Translations under genes and position numbers: made by a program | The notes under the pieces: model-generated | The model's database searches: none | What the model saw: only the letters and a program-made list of their open reading frames with translations | Told to the model about the DNA's origin: nothing | Shown here: piece after piece, positions 6,226 to 63,973 of the stretch | Layout: every line of letters starts with the position of its first letter | Position numbering within the stretch: position 1 is the first letter of the stretch | Virus record (IMG/VR): IMGVR_UViG_3300031953_000001 | From: a virus | Taxonomy: Duplodnaviria > Caudoviricetes | Reading direction: 5' to 3' (one strand) | Length of the DNA: 64,000 bases

Positions 6226-6654
6226 ATGAAACGTCTATTAAAAACCGCATTAACCTCAACGGCGGCGGTTGTCCTTATTGTCGGAAACCCTGAGAAGATG
6301 AAAGGCCAAGAGAAGTTGGCCGGCGCTTACTACCGGGCCATTACCGACTTCGTTGAATCGCAAGGCTTTGCGGTTAAAGTCGACCCAGGCGAACCCAAGA
6401 CGTGTCCAGACATGAGTGCAGCGTTCTGGATAGCGCACAGCCGTGGGGTGGATCGCATTCGATGCATCGATCCTAAGGATCAATGGCGGTTTTTAAAGTT
6501 AGGTGACCCAGACGGCGTTATCCACCCGGTCGACGCTAAATGGCAGGCTGGAATCACCGATCACCGAGGCTCTAAGGAGATGCCCCCCAAGGAACACTTT
6601 GAATTCACTGAGAATCAGAAGCAAGCAATTGTGGATCTGATCAAAAAACTATAA
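6226..6654 (+). CDS. hypothetical protein, possible small alpha/beta-hydrolase-like fold
   Basis: AAGGA SD; IAHSRG resembles a nucleophile elbow. Confidence 0.45.
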   Translation: MKRLLKTALTSTAAVVLIVGNPEKMKGQEKLAGAYYRAITDFVESQGFAVKVDPGEPKTCPDMSAAFWIAHSRGVDRIRCIDPKDQWRFLKLGDPDGVIHPVDAKWQAGITDHRGSKEMPPKEHFEFTENQKQAIVDLIKKL

Positions 6655-6741
6655 GGTAAGGAATACCGAAGTAGGTCGTTATTCCCTTAACTGAAGTAAA
6701 ACCAATTTTAAAACCCGCTCCTAACCACAAAGAGACATGCT

Positions 6742-7239
6742 ATGAACCTATTGATCATTGGCCATCGACAACACGGTAAGACCGACGTTGGTAAAACGCT
6801 GGCGGATCGGTTGGCCACCAAAGCTCACGATTCGTCCTGGTTCATGGCCGAGCGAGTCGTTTACCCGGCCCTTAAAGTTGAGTGCGGCTATTCGAGCGTT
6901 GAGGACTGTTACGCCGACCGAGGCCGCCACCGTCAGGCGTGGTTTGAGTTGATCGAAGCGTACAACGACGAACCCGACCGTCTGACTCGGGCTATCTTAA
7001 GCGAAGGCACCATCTACATTGGGATGCGCTCTCGCATGGAGTTTGAAGGCTCCAAGCAGCACTTTGATGCGGTGATCTGGGTAGACGGCTCAGAACGAGT
7101 GTCTGAGGAACCGGCCACATCCATGAAGTTAACGCCTGCCGATGCCGATTATGTCATTAACAACAACGGCACGGTTGACGAGCTTCCGGCTCAGATCGAA
7201 CGATTATTACTCTGGTTAAACGAGATACAGTATGAATAA
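6742..7239 (+). CDS. deoxynucleoside monophosphate kinase-like P-loop protein
   Basis: N-terminal LIIGHRQHGKTDV P-loop, DR..HRQ.W and C-terminal ADYVINNNGT, typical of phage dNMP kinases. Confidence 0.75.
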   Translation: MNLLIIGHRQHGKTDVGKTLADRLATKAHDSSWFMAERVVYPALKVECGYSSVEDCYADRGRHRQAWFELIEAYNDEPDRLTRAILSEGTIYIGMRSRMEFEGSKQHFDAVIWVDGSERVSEEPATSMKLTPADADYVINNNGTVDELPAQIERLLLWLNEIQYE

Positions 7240-7414
7240 ACTGTCTGTTATTTTAGACGCACTGGAAGCCAACGGCATACGTGTTGTGCCACCCCCGCCC
7301 ATAAAACAATCCAAACACAAGCCACCGACGGAAGAGCAGGAACGTCTGAAACTCGAAGCGCAACGCAAACGCGAGCGTCGGGCTCAGAAACGCCGCCGCG
7401 CCAGCACTCGGTAA
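7232..7414 (+). CDS. small basic hypothetical protein
   Basis: Overlaps the kinase stop; K/R-rich C-terminus. Confidence 0.55.
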   Translation: MNKLSVILDALEANGIRVVPPPPIKQSKHKPPTEEQERLKLEAQRKRERRAQKRRRASTR

Positions 7415-7612
7415 GAAGACTCACATTAATCCAATAGATGAGAAGGAAGTGATACGTGTACGCTACTGGCAGTATCTTAACCATGCCCCGGATAATAATC
7501 CTTCTGGTTGCTTTGATTAAGATCAGTGAATTCACTGAGTCCAAATCTTACGTAAGGCAAACCTCTTTGGCCGATACGGAAATTCAACTCACCCACTCGA
7601 CCGAGGTACTTC

Positions 7613-7825
7613 ATGTCTCCAGATAGACCCCAAGTCGACTTAGACAACACCGGGATGGACGAACGCACCATCGAAAAACGCTACGCGGCCCTGATGGGTA
7701 AAAAGAAGTCCAAGCTGGATCGAACCCAGACGGATGAGAACGCCCTTCAGGACGCTCAGGAGAAACGTCGATTAAAGGCGCGTAAACGTCTAGCCCAAAC
7801 TGCAACGGTCGCTCAGAGTGTTTAG
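7613..7825 (+). CDS. small basic hypothetical protein
   Basis: GAGG SD; stop overlaps the nuclease start. Confidence 0.5.
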   Translation: MSPDRPQVDLDNTGMDERTIEKRYAALMGKKKSKLDRTQTDENALQDAQEKRRLKARKRLAQTATVAQSV

Positions 7826-8291
7826 AACCTGCTTCTACGCGATCTTTGTCTTTGCGTTGCTGTGTCTGGGTGCCCCTGTGGCCTCAGCCGACACCCGCTG
7901 GACAATCAATCCGAACCACATCGCCCGCTATTACGACGGCGATACGTTCTACGTAAATCTGCCCGGACTGCCGGTGGTCTTCGGAGAGGAGCTGCCAATC
8001 CGACTGCTGAACATCGACACTCCTGAATTGCGCAGTCGCTGTAAAGACCCAGATATAAAACTTCAAGAGAAAGCCCTGGCTCGTGAGGCTCGGGATTACC
8101 TTATCCAACAGTTGGAGCAAGCGCAGGTTATTCGCATCCAAGATCTGGAGCGGGGCAGTTTCTTTCGAGTGGTGGCCAACGTGTACATTGACGACGTTTG
8201 GCTCAACGCTCAGATGGTGGAAGCCGGCTACGCGGTAGACGTCTTTGATGGTAAGAGTGCCGACTGGTGTGAGTTGCTGATCGGACAATAA
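7818..8291 (+). CDS. staphylococcal-nuclease (thermonuclease) family protein with a signal peptide
   Basis: YDGDTF, IRLLNIDTPE, R.VA.VY.D and LN.QMVEAGYA motifs; hydrophobic N-terminus ending ASA. Confidence 0.88.
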   Translation: MFRTCFYAIFVFALLCLGAPVASADTRWTINPNHIARYYDGDTFYVNLPGLPVVFGEELPIRLLNIDTPELRSRCKDPDIKLQEKALAREARDYLIQQLEQAQVIRIQDLERGSFFRVVANVYIDDVWLNAQMVEAGYAVDVFDGKSADWCELLIGQ

Positions 8292-40794: not shown

Positions 40795-40860
40795 TTTGAA
40801 TCATATATCATCCACGTGTCTTACCCTTGTGTAAACCAACACGACCTCGATGATGGTATG
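40795..40860 (+). promoter_or_regulatory. tandem early-type (TATATCAT 40804-40811) and late-type (ATGGTATG 40853-40860) promoter motifs
   Basis: Both motifs lie in one intergenic gap after a hairpin at 40751-40771. Confidence 0.55.
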
Positions 40861-46449: not shown

Positions 46450-46495
46450 CCTACCCTCACGAAATGGTGTTTATTTTGTCATTCCATTGAAATAC

Positions 46496-46513
46496 AAACC
46501 TATATCACACAGG
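46496..46513 (+). promoter_or_regulatory. putative early promoter AAACCTATATCACACAGG
   Basis: Exact copy of the 18-mer. Confidence 0.7.
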
Positions 46514-46570
46514 GGAGTATGCACCTACTTAACCGATGCTAATCTAACCTCTACGAATAAGGAATTTGAT

Positions 46571-47110
46571 ATGACCAAGTCTACTCTTGAAACCAACGTG
46601 TTTATGGAAATCGCCGAGGAACTGATTGCCTCCGACGTTCCTGTTCAGGACATGATCAATAAGACTGCACTATCGCCTGCGCAGTTTTATCGGGACTTCC
46701 GAGAATACTTCGATTGTACTCCTACCGAATACCGGGTAGCCGGACGGCAAGCGCAGCAAGCGCGTGAAGAGAAAGTCAAGACCGAAGAGGTGTTCAATTT
46801 CACCGTGAATATGCAGCAGGCGGGACTCTACCCCCAAGGCATGGCTCACACCGGACATGGTCCAATGAATGCTGAGTTCGTTATACCTTTGGTGGTGAAC
46901 GGCCAGTATGGGTTTACCGCGTACGTTGTCCCCATCTCAGGAAGTTGCCCCACCCGCGACCCAGTCAATTTTCTCCGCAGTGAATACAGAGACTACTTCA
47001 ACGCCCAGGTGGTAGATACTCTTATACCCTATTTCCATGGGCAGCTCGACATTGCGTATCTTCAGACCCTTAGTTTAGCTCAAACCGCACGCCGAGGCGC
47101 AGCTTGGTAG
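46571..47110 (+). CDS. protein with an N-terminal AraC-type HTH
   Basis: AAGGA SD; LSPAQFYRDFREYFDCTPTEYR matches the first AraC HTH (S..yF.R.FK...G.TP.EY). Confidence 0.6.
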   Translation: MTKSTLETNVFMEIAEELIASDVPVQDMINKTALSPAQFYRDFREYFDCTPTEYRVAGRQAQQAREEKVKTEEVFNFTVNMQQAGLYPQGMAHTGHGPMNAEFVIPLVVNGQYGFTAYVVPISGSCPTRDPVNFLRSEYRDYFNAQVVDTLIPYFHGQLDIAYLQTLSLAQTARRGAAW

Positions 47111-48535: not shown

Positions 48536-48685
48536 CTTAAAGCGGGTCTGTTATTTTGTACAGGCCCGCTACATCTATCGACCCTAACCGGGCTTGGACG
48601 TGAGTCCACAGTGGGACTTCCGCGCCCACTGCAGATATGCCGTTTATTCTTTTTTTGACATCACAGCCTCTATGGAGACACAGTT

Positions 48686-49183
48686 ATGACTATTTCAACC
48701 GACGAAGCCAAAGCGTTAGTAACCACCCAGTTGTACACCACCCAGTTGGAGTGTGAGACGTCGATCCTCTTGGAATACACTGACATCCTGGACCGAGTAA
48801 TTGAAGCCTTAGCCCTCAAAGACCCTCGGTACGTGTACCGCCACGGCGAGGCGGTGTTCGTTGATGAGGCCATCGTGGAAGGGTATCTTCAGATCGAGTT
48901 GATTGACTTTAACCTCGACGACGAATCCCATCCAGAACACCACTGGATAGTGGATGGCGATGAGTTGGACACCACCAAATGGCGACTCGACGACATCACC
49001 CTGGGGTTTAAACTGTCGGGCGTCGAGGTCAACCCCCTGCCCGCGTACATTGAGGTAGAGCAGGTGGACTATGTCACTGACACCGATCAGCCTGACCGTG
49101 AGGATTTCAAATTCAAACGCACGTATCTGGTGAACATTCGTTTGTTAGAGCGTCCCGCGTTTATTCGCCCCGCAGCGGAGTGA
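48686..49183 (+). CDS. hypothetical protein
   Basis: GGAG SD. Confidence 0.7.
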   Translation: MTISTDEAKALVTTQLYTTQLECETSILLEYTDILDRVIEALALKDPRYVYRHGEAVFVDEAIVEGYLQIELIDFNLDDESHPEHHWIVDGDELDTTKWRLDDITLGFKLSGVEVNPLPAYIEVEQVDYVTDTDQPDREDFKFKRTYLVNIRLLERPAFIRPAAE

Positions 49184-49190
49184 TCTCTTT

Positions 49191-49649
49191 ATGATGAATC
49201 CCGAGTACGCCAACGCCATTGTAGACAACATGGCCGTCACCATGATCCGGTTGTACGGCATCGTGTTGTCCGAATACCCCAACGCCCTCAAGCAAGCCGT
49301 AGAGACCTTAGCGCATGAAGACGTGCGTTACGTACAACACGGCAACCGTAAGATCTGGATTGGCCATGCGGCTATTGCAACCGAGTTGCAAATAGACGTG
49401 ATGGAGTTTGACGTGGCCCAGGAAGTGGAGCCTGAGCAACCAGTACGCCCTAACGGCACGCACCTAGGGCAACGCCGGTTTGAGGTAAAGAACGTGCCCC
49501 TTACGGTGCAAGATGCGCGCAAGCAAGTCGCGTGTACGGTCGTGGTGATCATTGACGACTACCTCCCGCCTTCTGAGGCTGTCTTGGAAGACACCGCTGA
49601 CTTAAAATACGAACGCTCGATTCAAGTGGCGTTCTACATCAATTCGTGA
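49191..49649 (+). CDS. hypothetical protein
   Basis: GGAG SD. Confidence 0.7.
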   Translation: MMNPEYANAIVDNMAVTMIRLYGIVLSEYPNALKQAVETLAHEDVRYVQHGNRKIWIGHAAIATELQIDVMEFDVAQEVEPEQPVRPNGTHLGQRRFEVKNVPLTVQDARKQVACTVVVIIDDYLPPSEAVLEDTADLKYERSIQVAFYINS

Positions 49650-49659
49650 GGATATCTAG

Positions 49660-49968
49660 ATGCACGATCAAAACGGCGACCGGAATGACGTGAGAAAAGG
49701 GGTAACCGAGCCGCGTCTCTCGGAGGCGTTTGTTAAAGACTTGGTTAAGCGACACAATTGCCCAATCACCACCCGGGCCGTCAACGCCCTAACCGCAGGG
49801 GGAGTTGACACCGAGGAGAAGTTACTTAAGCTTACTGAGTACGACTTACGCAGAGCGCCTAATGTGGGTCCCCACACAGCGCAAAGCATCGTGGAACTTC
49901 AACGTCGAGTGACCGGTGATGTTAACTTAAGAAACCACCTGCTTCAGGGATTAAACGACAAAAATTGA
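49660..49968 (+). CDS. stand-alone RNA polymerase alpha-CTD-like protein
   Basis: ITTRAVNALTAGGVDTEEKLLKLTEYDLRRAPNVGPHTAQSI parallels alpha-CTD LSVRSANCL...I..IGDL...TE.ELLKTPNLG.KS..EI. Confidence 0.7.
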   Translation: MHDQNGDRNDVRKGVTEPRLSEAFVKDLVKRHNCPITTRAVNALTAGGVDTEEKLLKLTEYDLRRAPNVGPHTAQSIVELQRRVTGDVNLRNHLLQGLNDKN

Positions 49969-49978
49969 GGAAAGAATC

Positions 49979-51232
49979 ATGGACCTGAAAACACACGCTT
50001 TTTTCGTTGAAGTCGCCGCTGGTGCCACTATGTATCGTCGTCCTCTGGTTATTAACGATGGCGTGGTAACCATCGCCGAAGAGCATGGTGGCGCCGTCGA
50101 AGTCCCCGAGGCAAAGAACGGGAAGCGGATGGTAATGCATTTGGTCGCCGAACGATCTACACCAGACGGGCAGAGGTACATTCAGGTATTAACCGGTTAC
50201 ACCGATCGCGGTGTTGAAAAATCGCACGTCCTGGACCCAGAAACAAAGATTTACTTCAACCGGTTGGTGTCTGCCAGCGGAATAGGTCAAGCGCTGAGCG
50301 CGCGTTGGACCGGGCAGATATTCACACCTAATTCTCCTATGGGCTCTGGAATGCCAATGCGAAGATTGGCCCCAGAAGACATCGTAGGAGAATTGGCATT
50401 TCAAAGAGAGTTCCACTTCGAAAGTGGGATTGAGGATGCGAGATCGTACATTTACGGACTTAAACTGACCGACGCTGCCTTTCTAGAACCGACGACGTAT
50501 CTGTCCAAAATACAGGAGACATACACCCGCACACTGTCTGAGTGGGAGGAGAGCTCTCTATTTGATGACAACGATGACCGGCCCCTCGACGTGTGTTTGA
50601 ATCGACTGAAGTCTATGCCAATGGCTTGCAGTCCGATCTTGGCGAGAATACGGATGATGAATGACCATCTACTCAACAACTACATCACGTACGAGCAATT
50701 TAATCAATTAGTTGACGACAAAGACGTGGTGGTGGTTTTGCAGTCCGATACCGAGAAAAACAATCCTGCACCATCACATGACTGGAACAACAACGACCTG
50801 GAAACATTGGTCTGCGCCCGGCTGGAAGCAGAGCTGCCGACGGTGATGATTAACCGGGGAGTCGTCCAATGGGGGTTTAGCATTGTGTTTGATGGAGTAG
50901 GCTCTAGCGTCAAGTTCTACGCTTTAGATACGGAATTGACAACGGAACACCCACCCACCCTGATATCCGAACTCGAACGGCGAGTGATCGACATACTGAC
51001 ACCGTATATGGATGAGTTGAGTACCCTCGAGGTTACCGGCGCCAATATCCATAACAGTCGATATGTCATCACGTCAAATACGGGGAAACCTCGCACCTAC
51101 ATCGCACCTACGTATATGAATTCCATGTACAGTAGCTACTTGTCATCAGACTCAAAACACTTTGTGAAACTCGCCAAGACGGTGGAGGACTCCTTGGTGA
51201 ATCTTGGATTGGATGTCGTCACTAAGCACTGA
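49979..51232 (+). CDS. divergent homolog of the phage-nucleus import factor PicA/Imp1 (phiKZ gp69)
   Basis: Collinear motifs matching my recollection of gp69-family proteins: YRRP, GYTD.G....LDP....YFN, PEDI, W...D....A.....P.VM, E.ERR...IL and APT..S.... Confidence 0.6.
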   Translation: MDLKTHAFFVEVAAGATMYRRPLVINDGVVTIAEEHGGAVEVPEAKNGKRMVMHLVAERSTPDGQRYIQVLTGYTDRGVEKSHVLDPETKIYFNRLVSASGIGQALSARWTGQIFTPNSPMGSGMPMRRLAPEDIVGELAFQREFHFESGIEDARSYIYGLKLTDAAFLEPTTYLSKIQETYTRTLSEWEESSLFDDNDDRPLDVCLNRLKSMPMACSPILARIRMMNDHLLNNYITYEQFNQLVDDKDVVVVLQSDTEKNNPAPSHDWNNNDLETLVCARLEAELPTVMINRGVVQWGFSIVFDGVGSSVKFYALDTELTTEHPPTLISELERRVIDILTPYMDELSTLEVTGANIHNSRYVITSNTGKPRTYIAPTYMNSMYSSYLSSDSKHFVKLAKTVEDSLVNLGLDVVTKH

Positions 51233-51297
51233 CGCATACAGTCAACCGTCCAAATCCAAGATATCCTTTTAATAGTCAGGTGTAAGTCCATTGCAAA

Positions 51298-51333
51298 ATA
51301 AGAGGAGGGCGCTTGCCCTCCTCTTATTTTTTG
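51298..51333. terminator. bidirectional terminator between convergent operons
   Basis: AATAAGAGGAGGGC-GCTT-GCCCTCCTCTTATT, with A-run before and T-run after. Confidence 0.85.
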
Positions 51334-51334
51334 T

Positions 51335-51565
51335 CTAAAGGGTAGGATCGATGCGCACGTCGTACGCGGCACCGCGTTTGAGAGGCACCGCCTCACCCGA
51401 GTAAACCACCCCACACCACAAAGGTCCAGAGAAATAAAGAATACTGGGTACCGACTTAGGGTCCATGTTCGCTAACCCACACAGGGCCGCGTACGCCATC
51501 TCTCGACGGTTGTCAACCACGACGTCTGTGCCGTTCACGGTAATAGCAACGGTATTTTTTGTCAC
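51335..51565 (-). CDS. ubiquitin-like beta-grasp protein (multiubiquitin-domain-like)
   Basis: VAITVNG...MAY..L..LA...I.Y.SGP...G.V..GE.V.LK.G..YDV pattern; last gene after the endolysin. Confidence 0.55.
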   Translation of the reverse strand: MTKNTVAITVNGTDVVVDNRREMAYAALCGLANMDPKSVPSILYFSGPLWCGVVYSGEAVPLKRGAAYDVRIDPTL

Positions 51566-51568
51566 AAG

Positions 51569-52372
51569 TTAGACCGTCGTCTGACGCGCGTACGCTTCAG
51601 CCATTTTTTCATCGTACTTGTTCTTTTTGTAAGACGGTCCGTTGTAGATGCGTGCAAACGTTGCCCAGTCTTTTTGTTCTAACGCGCGGTGTAGCCGTGG
51701 GTCCGCGGCGATAAACCGTACAAAGGCATACAGTTGATGGGCTTCGTCGATGCACATCTTCGACATAAAGTCGTCCACTGAAGCGTAGTTGAGATACTTC
51801 CAGTGAAAACCCATGATCTGATATCGTCCGTACGATGCACTTTCTTTGGCAGCTGGGGTGTTCAACTCCATAGCTTTGCGCAGACGAGTCCATTCGTGCT
51901 TGCCCCCACGGTAACCGCCCCAACCGGTGTTGACCAAATCAGGACGTGCCGCTCGACCCAACTCCGCTGCCAGAGGTAACTTGGCCTCAAGCAGACGACG
52001 GTTCATGATGTGGCGCTCAAACAAGATTTTCGGCAGACCCGCTTCTAAGAAACCACCGCCTTGACTTTCCACCTCAGACACCGCCTTGATGGCCGCTACC
52101 TCTACACTCAACATTTCCGCAGCCCGCATCACGTCTTTCTCGGTCAACTGCCAATCGTCGACGCGGTTGTCGTTCAACTCTTCCCAGGTTCGCTTACCGG
52201 CTACGCCGTCGGCCAACAGTCCCGCTTTTGTTTGAAACGCCACTAAGGCCCGGTGGGTACCTGGCCCAAAGGCCCCGTCATCGGGTGGATTAAGGTGACC
52301 TTTATCGATCAACAGGCGCTGCAGCTGTGCCACTGCCTGGCCCCGAGAACCCAACTTTATCAATTTACTCAT
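51569..52372 (-). CDS. modular endolysin: PG-binding domain plus DUF3380-type muramidase
   Basis: LGSRG.AV.QLQ..L...DG.FG..T..A...FQ...GL.ADG.AG..TW, then AV.EVES, PKILFERH, SYG.YQIMGF and FAR.YNG..Y..N.YD.KM motifs. Confidence 0.92.
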   Translation of the reverse strand: MSKLIKLGSRGQAVAQLQRLLIDKGHLNPPDDGAFGPGTHRALVAFQTKAGLLADGVAGKRTWEELNDNRVDDWQLTEKDVMRAAEMLSVEVAAIKAVSEVESQGGGFLEAGLPKILFERHIMNRRLLEAKLPLAAELGRAARPDLVNTGWGGYRGGKHEWTRLRKAMELNTPAAKESASYGRYQIMGFHWKYLNYASVDDFMSKMCIDEAHQLYAFVRFIAADPRLHRALEQKDWATFARIYNGPSYKKNKYDEKMAEAYARQTTV

Positions 52373-52391
52373 GTTGTGCACCTTTTATTAA

Positions 52392-53429
52392 TTAATCGGC
52401 CGCTGTGCAACCCGTTGGAACCGTAATGAGCATATCAGTATCGCCAATGATGCTGGCGGTACTTACAATGTCCACGTCAGAGAGGACAGTTCCTTTTACT
52501 CGCGAGACGTCCAAGGTAATAACACCTGCCTGACTGCGCGCGTTGTTGCCAATCGACGTATTGATCGCGTTAATCGCACCGGCGGCGCTACTGATGACGC
52601 TGCCCTTAACCAATACCCCGTTCAAGGTAGTGACGCCACCACTGATGATGTCCTTACCAACCGTGCTGCCAGTGCCAATGTTGATCGCACCGCTGCCGGT
52701 GGAAACTGAGCCTCCCACAGTAACGTTGTTGGTCAGACCTACAACGCCCGCGCCGGTACTGACAACGCTACCACACAACCAACTTCGGTCGCCTATGGTG
52801 ATGCCGCCAGCGGTGGTGGCGATACCGCCGCCAAGGACGACGTCCGTTAATAAGGTAACCACCCCATCGGTGGATGACACCTCACCGTCCACCGTGCTTC
52901 TCACCCCTAAATTAATCCCGCCGGCTTGGGTGCTGACATCCCCCCCGACTCGACTTTTATACTCCAAGGTTATTACACCGGTAGAGGCACTGGTGCTGAT
53001 GTTCCCAGACAGTCTACTTTCACTGGCTAAATTAACGGTCCCCACCCCGACTACGTTGGCGTTCATTATTGAATTTGCACCCAACACAAACGCCGCGTTG
53101 GTAATCAACGTAAGGTCCTCGGACGGTTTTCCAGCGTTGATCAGATTGCCCGTCCCGGTGGTGAAGGTTCCGGAAAAGGTAATCGTAACCGGAGTCACAC
53201 CGCCCAGAGCGATGGTGTCGCCTGCAACCAACTCCAACGCACTGCATCCGTAGGAGCGCGCCCCGGCATCGATGAGACTACAGCCTATGGGTAGCGTGTC
53301 TCCATTGGAAGAAAACGTGTAATTAGTGGCGGCTTGAACAAGATTGCTTAACAGCAACCCTACCACCAGCAGCGTCTGACACAAGAGTTGTATCGGCGTA
53401 TACCGACGGTGGGGGCTTTGGTGTTTCAT
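52392..53429 (-). CDS. secreted beta-helix protein resembling the N-terminus of MshQ/DUF6701-type pilus-associated adhesins
   Basis: Sec signal ending VQA; ATNYTF...LP.GCS...Y.C.AL.L..GDTI; repeated G.V.T..G.I.L/IG units. Confidence 0.55.
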   Translation of the reverse strand: MKHQSPHRRYTPIQLLCQTLLVVGLLLSNLVQAATNYTFSSNGDTLPIGCSLIDAGARSYGCSALELVAGDTIALGGVTPVTITFSGTFTTGTGNLINAGKPSEDLTLITNAAFVLGANSIMNANVVGVGTVNLASESRLSGNISTSASTGVITLEYKSRVGGDVSTQAGGINLGVRSTVDGEVSSTDGVVTLLTDVVLGGGIATTAGGITIGDRSWLCGSVVSTGAGVVGLTNNVTVGGSVSTGSGAINIGTGSTVGKDIISGGVTTLNGVLVKGSVISSAAGAINAINTSIGNNARSQAGVITLDVSRVKGTVLSDVDIVSTASIIGDTDMLITVPTGCTAAD

Positions 53430-54734: not shown

Positions 54735-55520
54735 TTATTTACGAAACAACGTCTCACCTAACCATCCAATGGGGTCTATGCGGTGGAAACGTACTTGATT
54801 TGGGTGTCGATGATGTTCTTCGTGCCAGCAGTCACCGAGAATAAAGGGAAACATCCATAAACTGCTGTGGGCGCGGTCGTGATCGTTGCCCCAACCGTGG
54901 CCCCAGGTGTTGGCTAACGATTGCAGTTGCCACACCAGAGCCGGTGGCGCCCAGACTAGAGCCAAGGCCCAGTCCAACGGCAGCAGCCAGAGACTGCCTA
55001 ACAACACCGATCCGTAGATCTTCCAGTAGTGTCTGTGAAACCCCACATGCCAGGTATCTCGCAACAAACGCCCGGCATGCCGGCCGCTGACCTCTCGAAA
55101 GGTGTACCCTAACAGCTGAATGGCCAGCCAATGACTCTGAGCTGGACTATGAGGGTCCTTAGGGGTCCCCTGGTGCTTGTGATGGGCATTGTGAGTGGCA
55201 ACCCACCCCAACGTACTGCCTTGAAGTGAAAGCCCTCCCAGAAGAGTTAGAATCACCTCTACGGATCGGGGTACAGTTACGGTCTTGTGCGTCAGCACTC
55301 GATGGTACATAAAACTGATCCCCAGTTGTGAGATCAGGTACGCCATCCCTAGGGCCAGTAACAGAGCGCCACCGGCACCAGAAAAGACCAATGTCAAAAC
55401 GACAGCGTGTGACGCGATGATCACGCTGTAATGCAAGACTCGGTTCAGAGGTACGATTTCTACATTGATCGCGCGCAGTCGGTCCATGGTACTTCCTTTT
55501 AAGTCAATAAGAACGTTCAA
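54735..55520 (-). CDS. membrane fatty-acid desaturase (Delta9-like), copy 1
   Basis: His boxes YHRVLTH, HNAHH and WHEEHH; DPHS; hydrophobic helices. Confidence 0.88.
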   Translation of the reverse strand: MNVLIDLKGSTMDRLRAINVEIVPLNRVLHYSVIIASHAVVLTLVFSGAGGALLLALGMAYLISQLGISFMYHRVLTHKTVTVPRSVEVILTLLGGLSLQGSTLGWVATHNAHHKHQGTPKDPHSPAQSHWLAIQLLGYTFREVSGRHAGRLLRDTWHVGFHRHYWKIYGSVLLGSLWLLPLDWALALVWAPPALVWQLQSLANTWGHGWGNDHDRAHSSLWMFPFILGDCWHEEHHRHPNQVRFHRIDPIGWLGETLFRK

Positions 55521-58873: not shown

Positions 58874-59620
58874 TTACTCCTTTTTAATCAGACGAATAAA
58901 CCAGGCGGCAAAGTCCCATTCCCACCAGCGTTCTTGGGTGTTCCAATGTCCCGGGTGGGCGTGATGGTTGTTGTGCCATCCATCCCCAGCGGTTAATACG
59001 TTCATCAGCCAACTGTTACGACTGCGGTCGGGCGTCTCGTGGTTGCGGTAACCCCAACCATGGCCGAGGGTGTTGAACACTCCTTTCAGATGAAACAACA
59101 GAGCCGTAGGAAGACACCAGCCGTAGACCAGCAGTTTCCAGTCGATCAAACTCAACCCCAAGGCGTAAATCAGCAGAATGAGAACGTAGTAGTCGTGTGT
59201 GATCTGATAGAACCGTTGTTTACGTTCGGTTCGAATGGCGCGATGGTCCAAGACCCAAGGTCGATCCAGCCAATCTCCAAACCAAGCGTCGATAAGGCCG
59301 TGTTGGTGTTGGCTGTGTGGGTCTCTGGGGCGATCTGAAAAGCCGTGATGGGTTCGGTGTACCAATGCGTTTGTCAATGGCGAGCCTAATGCAGTCAAGA
59401 TCCCCACGCCCGTGAGTGCAAGCTCAATGGGTTTATAGGTTTCAAACGACCTGTGCGCCAACAATCGATGATACCCCACGGTGATGCCAAAGAACCCATA
59501 GGCGTAATAGATAGCTAATGTAAACCCAAGCCAGCCCCACCAGCCGAGATAGATCGCCAGAGGCAGAAACACACACAACACCAGTTGGTTGCAGATTTGA
59601 AGGTGTTTTAGATACGTCAT
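58874..59620 (-). CDS. membrane fatty-acid desaturase (Delta9-like), copy 2
   Basis: GYHRLLAHRSF, HRTHH, DPHS, NTLGH, GYRN..T.D.SRN and WHNNHH. Confidence 0.92.
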   Translation of the reverse strand: MTYLKHLQICNQLVLCVFLPLAIYLGWWGWLGFTLAIYYAYGFFGITVGYHRLLAHRSFETYKPIELALTGVGILTALGSPLTNALVHRTHHGFSDRPRDPHSQHQHGLIDAWFGDWLDRPWVLDHRAIRTERKQRFYQITHDYYVLILLIYALGLSLIDWKLLVYGWCLPTALLFHLKGVFNTLGHGWGYRNHETPDRSRNSWLMNVLTAGDGWHNNHHAHPGHWNTQERWWEWDFAAWFIRLIKKE

Positions 59621-63124: not shown

Positions 63125-63973
63125 TCATATAGAGTCGAGGGAGGGATATCCTTCTCTCTTATCGACGTGTCGCATCAAATGGTGAGTCGATGGGTTTATC
63201 GGCGATGGGTGAGCGCCTTCGTTTGAGCGTTTACGAATGATCCGAATGATCCACGCGGGTAAGTCGAACTCCCACCATCGGACCTGGTTATTCCAATGTT
63301 GCGGATTGTGATGGTGGTTGTTGTGCCAGCCTTCCCCTAAGAACAACCAAGCCACCATCGGTGAATTGCGACTGTCGTCGTCGGTGTTGTAATTACGGTA
63401 ACCGACCGTGTGGGTCCAAGCCAAAGCGAACTTGAACACATACAGAATGATCGTGGCCGGCATGGCAAACGCAAAGACCACCAACCGCCAATCGATCGCC
63501 AGTAAGACCAAACACCAAACTCCCAAGATCGTGAAGTAGTGATTGTGACAAAACACGATGTCTTTCTGACGCAGCAGGTCTTTAGCTATTCTAGGCGACA
63601 GCTTTACCTCCGGCCAGTGCCCAAACCACACCCTAAAGAACCCCTGCACTTTGGGGCTGTGTGGGTCGGATGTGGTGTCTGCCTTGGCGTGATGGGTACG
63701 GTGCACGATCGTCCAGTTGATCGGAGAACCAAACCCCATCAACATCCCGACAAAGAGCAAAACGTAACGAATGGGGGTGTAGGTCTCAAATGACCTGTGG
63801 GCAACGTATCGGTGGTACCCCAAGGAGTTACCGAACAGACTGAGGACGTAGTACATCCCCAAGGCCACCAACAACCACTCGTATTGTTCGCTGTACATCA
63901 CGTATCCTAACCCCACCGCGGTTAACAGGTGATTGCCGCGGTTTAACCACAGTAGTTTGTGGTTATGGCTCAT
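63125..63973 (-). CDS. membrane fatty-acid desaturase (Delta9-like), copy 3
   Basis: GGAGG SD; GYHRYVAHRSF, HRTHH, DPHS, GYRN..T.D.SRN and WHNNHH. Confidence 0.92.
   Translation of the reverse strand: MSHNHKLLWLNRGNHLLTAVGLGYVMYSEQYEWLLVALGMYYVLSLFGNSLGYHRYVAHRSFETYTPIRYVLLFVGMLMGFGSPINWTIVHRTHHAKADTTSDPHSPKVQGFFRVWFGHWPEVKLSPRIAKDLLRQKDIVFCHNHYFTILGVWCLVLLAIDWRLVVFAFAMPATIILYVFKFALAWTHTVGYRNYNTDDDSRNSPMVAWLFLGEGWHNNHHHNPQHWNNQVRWWEFDLPAWIIRIIRKRSNEGAHPSPINPSTHHLMRHVDKREGYPSLDSI

Follow-up and report, generated by a model that had tools for sequence, protein, structure and literature searches.

The window analysed here, 64,000 nucleotides of DNA from a virus (Duplodnaviria; Caudoviricetes), encodes a short, divergent relative of PicA/Imp1 (gp69 of phage phiKZ). 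We are all but certain that the gene is genuine and intact, a second member of the PicA/Imp1 family in a genome that also carries the canonical one. PicA/Imp1 gates the entry of proteins into the phage nucleus and is normally a core gene beside the nvRNAP (non-virion RNA polymerase) genes. To our knowledge it is the only selectivity gate of the phage nucleus. The window corresponds to positions 110133–174132, read on the reverse strand, of the 222,493-bp IMG/VR record IMGVR_UViG_3300031953_000001 (hereafter G000); coordinates without a label are those of the window. The two copies and their immediate signals are located as follows.

49979–51232, + strand: short PicA/Imp1 paralog (phiKZ gp69 family), 417 amino acids, labelled P0001; identified by PHROG, BLASTP, hhalign and AlphaFold2
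49967–49971, + strand: Shine-Dalgarno sequence GAGGA, 7 nucleotides 5' of the P0001 ATG, where it shares nucleotides with the stop codon of the preceding gene; read from the sequence
G000 216679–218223: canonical PicA/Imp1, 514 amino acids, labelled P0002, between gp68 and gp70 homologs
G000 215395–216663: gp70 homolog adjoining P0002

Starting at its ATG, the open reading frame (ORF) of P0001 runs uninterrupted for 417 codons. A sequence-only reading of the window had picked out a series of gp69-like motifs in it, and all of these were found in the order given: YRRP (residues 19–22), LTGYTDRG...LDPETKIYFN (71–94), RLAPEDI (129–135), YLSKIQ (174–179), HDW (267–269), ELERRVIDIL (331–340) and YIAPTYMNSMYS (373–384). 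The sole deviation is the spacing from G to LDP, which is six residues and not two. The phiKZ motifs given there for comparison were roughly right: LDPNMRIYFN stands, while the other segments of the actual phiKZ gp69 read RPEDV, FERRLITDAI and FIAPTFIDSLFS.

Database and profile comparisons place P0001 in the same family. It has no match in Pfam but matches PHROG 3141, whose function is not annotated, with an E-value of 7.5e-15, and it aligns with the canonical protein of its own genome at 23% identity (BLASTP E 9e-18; residues 64–406 against 99–471). When the short clade was compared with 37 canonical proteins by hhalign, the probability was 99.95% (E 8e-38, 405 columns) and the alignment, spanning 5–410 against 8–465 of 492 columns, ran collinearly through almost all of both profiles. 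P0001 was also searched exhaustively with phmmer against 1.84 billion cluster representatives; there were 39 matches at E ≤ 1e-3, comprising one ortholog (P0005), a fragment of another (P0007), a fragment of the query, one spurious protein of 4307 amino acids and, for the remainder, gp69-like proteins of approximately 410–530 amino acids at 21–28% identity, the canonical members having E-values of 1e-12 to 1e-3. Direct tblastn searches with phiKZ gp69 against P0001, or with P0001 against isolate phages, gave no match, and the family membership of P0001 therefore rests on profiles and on the in-genome paralog. The tblastn with P0001 covered 50,697 phage records, and megablast of the surrounding 11 kb found no match.

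The predicted structure agrees with this assignment. The AlphaFold2 model of P0001 has a predicted local distance difference test score (pLDDT) of 84.6 and a predicted template modelling score (pTM) of 0.85, and its sole significant matches in BFVD were 15 chimallivirus gp69 homologs (template modelling (TM) scores 0.73–0.83, E 1e-28 to 1e-16). Neither P0001 nor P0002 had a sequence match in the PDB, and Foldseek found no PDB match to the fold, in agreement with the published statement that searches with Imp1 found no homologs of known molecular function (10.1101/2024.03.27.586873). A search for look-alikes of P0001 in the ESM Atlas yielded nothing useful. The resemblance of P0001 to gp69 is far beyond chance, and the proposal that it is a PicA/Imp1 family member is borne out by the PHROG 3141, hhalign and BFVD matches, profile and structure checks alike being positive. 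Its description as a shorter, divergent copy among small accessory genes also holds, at 417 amino acids and approximately 23% identity to the canonical copy. One BFVD entry, A0A1L7N194, the gp69/PicA homolog of Ralstonia phage RP12, matches the PicA fold with a TM score of 0.77 and bears the UniProt name ‘Major capsid protein’, which is probably a misannotation.

The sequence-only reading had regarded the gene as a displaced PicA. Nothing has moved: P0001 is an extra copy, and a search of the genome for a canonical PicA beside the gp68 and gp70 homologs found P0002 there, so that P0001 is not the sole copy. P0002 matches PHROG 3141 with an E-value of 2.6e-92 and the gene annotated PHIKZ069 of phiKZ at 24% identity over 98% coverage (tblastn E 9e-33). 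It has a 4-nucleotide overlap with the end of the gp68 homolog, is followed by the gp70 homolog, and lies within a collinear gp65-66-67-68-69-70-71-73-74 block at G000 210.6–222.5 kb (tblastn with phiKZ proteins). A relocated single copy is ruled out by this full synteny. The short copy is approximately 94 kb from P0002, in an accessory array outside the gp68/gp70 slot. In an all-against-all self-BLAST of the G000 ORFs, PicA was the sole shell or import gene with a paralog.

G000 belongs to the nucleus-forming (Chimalliviridae-type) phages and has all of the core import genes, since homologs of ChmA (G000 6337–8232, E 6.7e-34), PhuZ (E 6.4e-90), Imp3/gp59 and Imp6/gp67 are all present. The Imp3 and Imp6 homologs, together with nvRNAP subunits, were identified by tblastn with phiKZ proteins; homologs of gp50, gp55 and gp56 are also encoded, and the ends of the genome are direct terminal repeats. 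Positions 48600–52400 of the window were recovered letter for letter from brine, aquatic and marine metagenome runs dating from 2011 to 2024 in 15 studies. Uncultivated and known from metagenomes (brine), this phage inhabits saline water stably and over a wide range.

A second, trimmed copy of this otherwise single-copy core gene has not previously been reported. Canonical P0002 hit exactly one place by tblastn in each of 159 isolate phage records, and a family profile that included the short clade found one gene each in phiKZ, RSF1, LucasX, JM-2012 and Ea277G and two in G000. The canonical synteny of PicA was also seen in four isolate phages. Two long-branch matches, P0008 and P0042, were considered as paralogs elsewhere and rejected, both being in canonical synteny. 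The PicA/Imp1 papers, reviews and related papers searched make no mention of a paralog or duplication of the gene. Maximum-likelihood analysis unites the three short proteins in one clade (support 100/99), whose stem is long at 1.25 substitutions per site, and places P0002 in a well-supported canonical clade of 12 members. Approximately unbiased (AU) tests did not reject a grouping of the short clade with this 12-member clade (p 0.51) and weakly rejected a very recent duplication from the genome's own pair (p 0.044). Possible origins suggested by these trees are an old duplication within the lineage with accelerated change, or acquisition from another chimallivirus.

Among the 1.84 billion representatives, orthologs of P0001 occur in only two related metagenomic phages, at 55% and approximately 38% identity: P0005, encoded on Logan contig L004, is an intact 414-amino acid ortholog at 55% identity, and P0007 is a fragment of the second, at approximately 38%. 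Scans of viral contigs and of metagenome contigs for the short clade found none. Between P0001 and the L004 ortholog the rate of nonsynonymous substitution (dN) is 0.34 and that of synonymous substitution (dS) 1.81, a ratio of approximately 0.19 with dS near saturation. Judged from sequence, the short copy is maintained by purifying selection and is not decaying, because the ORFs are intact, the Shine-Dalgarno sequence is strong, dN/dS is approximately 0.2, the invariant residues are kept and the sequence is identical across metagenomes; the metagenome contigs covering the locus are identical to the window, with no population variants. Contigs from one brine metatranscriptome cover most of the P0001 ORF and are a hint of expression, contigs from an RNA library not being proof of transcription.

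The ortholog on Logan contig SRR28998459_42777 (L007) allows the locus to be compared.

L007 1018–2179: short-PicA ortholog

Local synteny is kept in L007, with a homolog of the 152-amino acid protein encoded next to P0001 in the window, the upstream intergenic region and the C-terminus of a 232-amino acid ORF; an alpha-CTD-like gene (CTD, C-terminal domain) and one of two tandem paralogs are lacking at this locus. For the G000–L007 pair, dN is 0.65–0.69 for the short PicA against 0.23 for the adjacent gene, approximately threefold the amino acid divergence.

The short copy shares with PicA/Imp1 (phiKZ gp69, PhiPA3 gp63, 201phi2-1 gp125; PHROG 3141) its family, predicted fold and collinear alignment, the GYTD...DP...YFN, (R)PED, YL(S/A)K, W, P..M and AP(T/S)(F/Y) positions, and its restriction to a ChmA-encoding, nucleus-forming phage. 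All five residues invariant across 40 family members are kept (G73, T75, N94, P132 and Y174), as are 14 of the 22 columns conserved at ≥90% and 20 of 38 (53%) of those conserved at ≥80%, where canonical members keep 25–38 of 38; the core signature stands, and a good part of the conserved surface has changed. It differs in being approximately 100 residues shorter (417 against approximately 480–560), with about half of the conserved positions kept, and in lacking an N-terminal element of two helices, a hairpin tip and the disordered tail: the main gaps in the alignment lie opposite P0002 residues 29–56 (two helices in the canonical model), 143–150 (the tip of a β-hairpin) and 482–514 (the disordered tail), and the N-terminal helices and C-terminal tail of the full PicA architecture are absent. 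It also differs in location, being off the gp68/gp70 slot and not behind a core early-type element, in coexisting with a canonical copy, and in being known from sequence.

Mutation of 11 positions in phiKZ PicA/Imp1 (G88, R90, I226, A270, Q297, H300, R306, E310, H365, H366 and T367) changes import in a cargo-specific manner (PMC11087766; 10.1101/2024.03.27.586873). All 11 align ungapped in P0001, and eight differ from P0002. A different cargo surface is thus plausible for P0001, the aligned residues being permissive rather than strong evidence for it. As to the tail, the C-terminus of P0002 reads ...GDTSI, that of the adjacent gp70 homolog ...GGGTSI and that of the canonical PicA of a relative, L005, ...GDTSL. 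The C-terminal peptide found on the disordered tails of both P0002 and the gp70 homolog could represent a docking motif that they share; no such tail exists in the short copy.

The short PicA is the last of four co-directional genes in a unit bounded by hairpins. The unit and its surroundings contain the following features.

46487–47110, + strand: 207-amino acid AraC-family helix-turn-helix protein, 3 kb upstream in the same accessory array (PF00165, 27.6 bits, cut-off 26.6)
48542–48643, + strand: upstream boundary, with hairpins at 48542–48569 and 48609–48631 followed by TATGCCGT at 48636–48643 (fold z-score −3.7)
48686–49183, + strand: 165-amino acid protein, first gene of the unit and tandem paralog of the 152-amino acid gene (blastp 26% identity, E 1e-8)
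49191–49649, + strand: 152-amino acid protein with no assigned function, its pairing with the short PicA kept in L007
49660–49968, + strand: third gene, for a stand-alone 102-amino acid helix-hairpin-helix protein resembling the RNA polymerase alpha-CTD (Pfam RNA_pol_A_CTD, E 2.3e-5, 24.5 bits, cut-off 23.8)
51297–51333, no strand assigned: bidirectional terminator-like perfect 15-bp GC-rich hairpin with a T-run on either strand (minimum free energy −38.3 kcal/mol, z-score −4.1)
51335–51565, − strand: 76-amino acid ORF closing the convergent endolysin unit; its match to Multiubiquitin (PF14452) is weak and falls short of the cut-off (20.2 bits, cut-off 24.5)
54735–55520, 58874–59620 and 63125–63973, − strand, plus G000 108568–110163: desaturase-like or DUF285/BspA-like paralogs

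The upstream TATGCCGT element sits 50 nucleotides before the first gene of the unit, and the hairpin at 51297–51333 separates the unit from the convergent endolysin unit. The 152-amino acid protein has no match in Pfam or PHROG and is approximately 65–70% identical to the product of L007 552–1007, which lies 10 nucleotides 5' of the L007 short-PicA ortholog. The ESM Atlas feature look-alikes of the 165- and 152-amino acid tandem pair are SnoaL/NTF2-like clusters (scores 0.91–0.93, few shared features), a weak lead. The alpha-CTD-like gene looks like a recent insertion into the unit, because it is absent from the same position in L007, where the 152-amino acid homolog abuts the short PicA directly. 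Bacterial AraC-type activators contact the alpha-CTD, and the alpha-CTD-like and AraC-type proteins of this array may act together on host transcription. We considered a duplicated Imp1–Imp6 module and rejected it, as the 165-amino acid, 152-amino acid, alpha-CTD-like and 232-amino acid neighbours resemble neither the Imp6 profile nor any core gene. Other paralogous families are dispersed in G000: the self-BLAST found five fatty-acid-desaturase-like paralogs, one backed by a Pfam match (FA_desaturase, E 1.4e-10), and DUF285/BspA-like repeat paralogs scattered through the genome, seven full-length with two short related ORFs (93 and 96 amino acids).

Genome-wide k-mer enrichment in intergenic regions identified recurrent elements of three classes, which probably serve as promoter classes for the phage's two RNA polymerases. 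Class A, ATATATCATC(C/G)A(A/G)GTG, accompanies genes for replication, the nucleus and the nvRNAP and stands 5' of PhuZ, the gp56 homolog, the operon of gp68 and canonical PicA, and gp71-73, while ChmA is preceded by a variant with two mismatches. Class B is a GC-rich hairpin followed by TATGCCGT; it has 23 copies in the genome, often 40–61 nucleotides before a start codon. Class C, ATGGTATG, stands 5' of an internal head protein and a tail protein. A scan for sigma-70 promoters returned fewer sites than shuffled controls, as expected because the phage uses its own RNA polymerases. Sites of the first two classes in the window are listed here.

2820, 25818, 29218 and 40803: class A
14156, 41993 and 48636: class B

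The early genes of phiKZ include PicA and ChmA (PMC12908238) as well as those of the nvRNAP (PMC12908238; PMC4666361), and in the late promoters read by the nvRNAP the defining motif is TATG, its G being the start site (PMC4666361). Because the motif classes differ, and by analogy with phiKZ, we infer that the canonical copy is expressed early and that the short copy would be transcribed later by the nvRNAP, via a TATG-type element.

What the second copy does is a more tentative matter. The account we favour, to which we give slightly less than an even chance, is that the short copy helps to select cargo for nuclear import, as an accessory factor whose cargo range or time window differs. Canonical PicA stays in the core operon, sharing a probable early promoter class with PhuZ and the nvRNAP genes (and, as the two-mismatch variant, ChmA), and the phage has in addition a trimmed, fast-evolving, lineage-specific paralog. 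The paralog keeps the family fold and invariant core motifs with most cargo-choice positions changed, would be expressed from its own hairpin-bounded four-gene unit with a TATG-type (nvRNAP-like, post-early) element, and would handle a cargo set or time window that the canonical protein does not serve. Its association with the shell, its import role and the timing of its expression are what we infer on this account. A wider scenario, possible but doubtful, is that some chimalliviruses have two import receptors, an early canonical PicA that sets up the nucleus and a later trimmed paralog that re-programmes entry or excludes the proteins of rivals. The phiKZ import adaptors Imp2, Imp4, Imp5 and Imp7 resemble the short copy in their narrow distribution, accessory-type location and proposed tuning or widening of the importer's cargo; they differ in being unrelated in sequence to Imp1, whereas P0001 is a paralog of the core factor. 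Eukaryotic karyopherin/importin paralogs offer an analogy only: there, receptor duplication has likewise led to separate cargo repertoires, but there is no homology, the barrier is a nuclear pore and not a protein lattice, and transport by P0001 is only proposed.

Several points weigh against the account we favour. About half of the family's conserved positions are altered in P0001, and the parts with which PicA docks at the shell could be just those that are missing, the N-terminal helices and the C-terminal tail, which would favour a role other than import. The phiKZ cargo positions vary family-wide, so that differences there are expected and make weak evidence. The alignment given to AlphaFold2 consisted mostly of canonical proteins, so the agreement in fold is not independent of the sequence homology, and the single-sequence ESM Atlas model of P0001 is poor (pTM 0.22). 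The promoter classes are putative, drawn from recurring motifs and from the phiKZ analogy, and read-through into the short PicA unit from the class A element at 40803 is possible. Finally, the L007 ortholog has an apparent frameshift near codon 225, with both halves open and P0001-like; this may reflect misassembly or a lesion of recent origin, and the gene may be dispensable in some lineages.

The short copy might instead be a neofunctionalised paralog in which the PicA fold has been recruited outside nuclear import, for instance to bind a host factor together with the 152-amino acid partner. The retention of 53% of well-conserved positions, the stem branch of 1.25 substitutions per site, the pairing with the 152-amino acid ORF kept in L007 and a locus outside the core import/nvRNAP block would all suit such a change of role. 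We nevertheless consider it unlikely, as the alignment is collinear from end to end with every signature motif kept, the gene is confined to ChmA-encoding phages, and no other function is known for the fold (no PDB match; 10.1101/2024.03.27.586873).

Rather unlikely, too, is a decoy or competitor, as the sequence-only reading had also suggested: a trimmed copy able to bind cargo-like surfaces yet incapable of docking or translocation. It would keep outside the nucleus the nuclear proteins of a co-infecting relative, cargo-mimicking host proteins or the phage's own late proteins until needed, or would poison the import site of a rival. Consistent with this, the equivalents of P0002 residues 29–56 and 482–514 are lost and the globular core is retained, although nothing identifies the missing elements as docking elements. 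The gene evolves fast relative to its neighbour, as expected of a conflict gene, but with a dN/dS of approximately 0.2 the selection is mainly purifying and not diversifying, and the family-invariant motifs, which are likely core or contacts to conserved machinery, are retained. Import discriminates between related phages (PMC11087766). Co-infection is plausible, given related phages in one run series (orthologs in SRR28998481 and SRR28998459, an Imp6 homolog in SRR28998489), and the accessory array carries genes of the host-takeover type (the alpha-CTD mimic and the AraC-type helix-turn-helix protein).

That the gene is a decaying or dispensable duplicate without a selected function is very improbable: the split of the L007 ortholog, the very narrow distribution (three lineages among the 1.84 billion representatives) and the loss of many conserved positions are countered by ORFs intact at 417 and 414 amino acids across 45% amino acid divergence with a dN/dS of approximately 0.19, by the strong Shine-Dalgarno sequence, confident fold prediction and retained invariant residues, and by the low coverage of the Logan contig, in which the frameshift, with both halves open and similar, may be an assembly error.

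A trimmed, divergent copy beside an intact one amounts to a natural dissection of PicA. The parts that the short copy has lost, the N-terminal helices and the C-terminal tail, may be those used in docking or in binding partners, and the surfaces that have changed may be those that choose cargo. Were some chimalliviruses to prove to have two receptors, this would be a first step to a receptor family, analogous to the importin paralogs, and would tell the docking parts of PicA from those that select cargo. The second PicA copy points to gene duplication as a way for import specificity to diversify; if true, this would bear on competition between phages and on the delivery of proteins into the phage nucleus or their exclusion from it.

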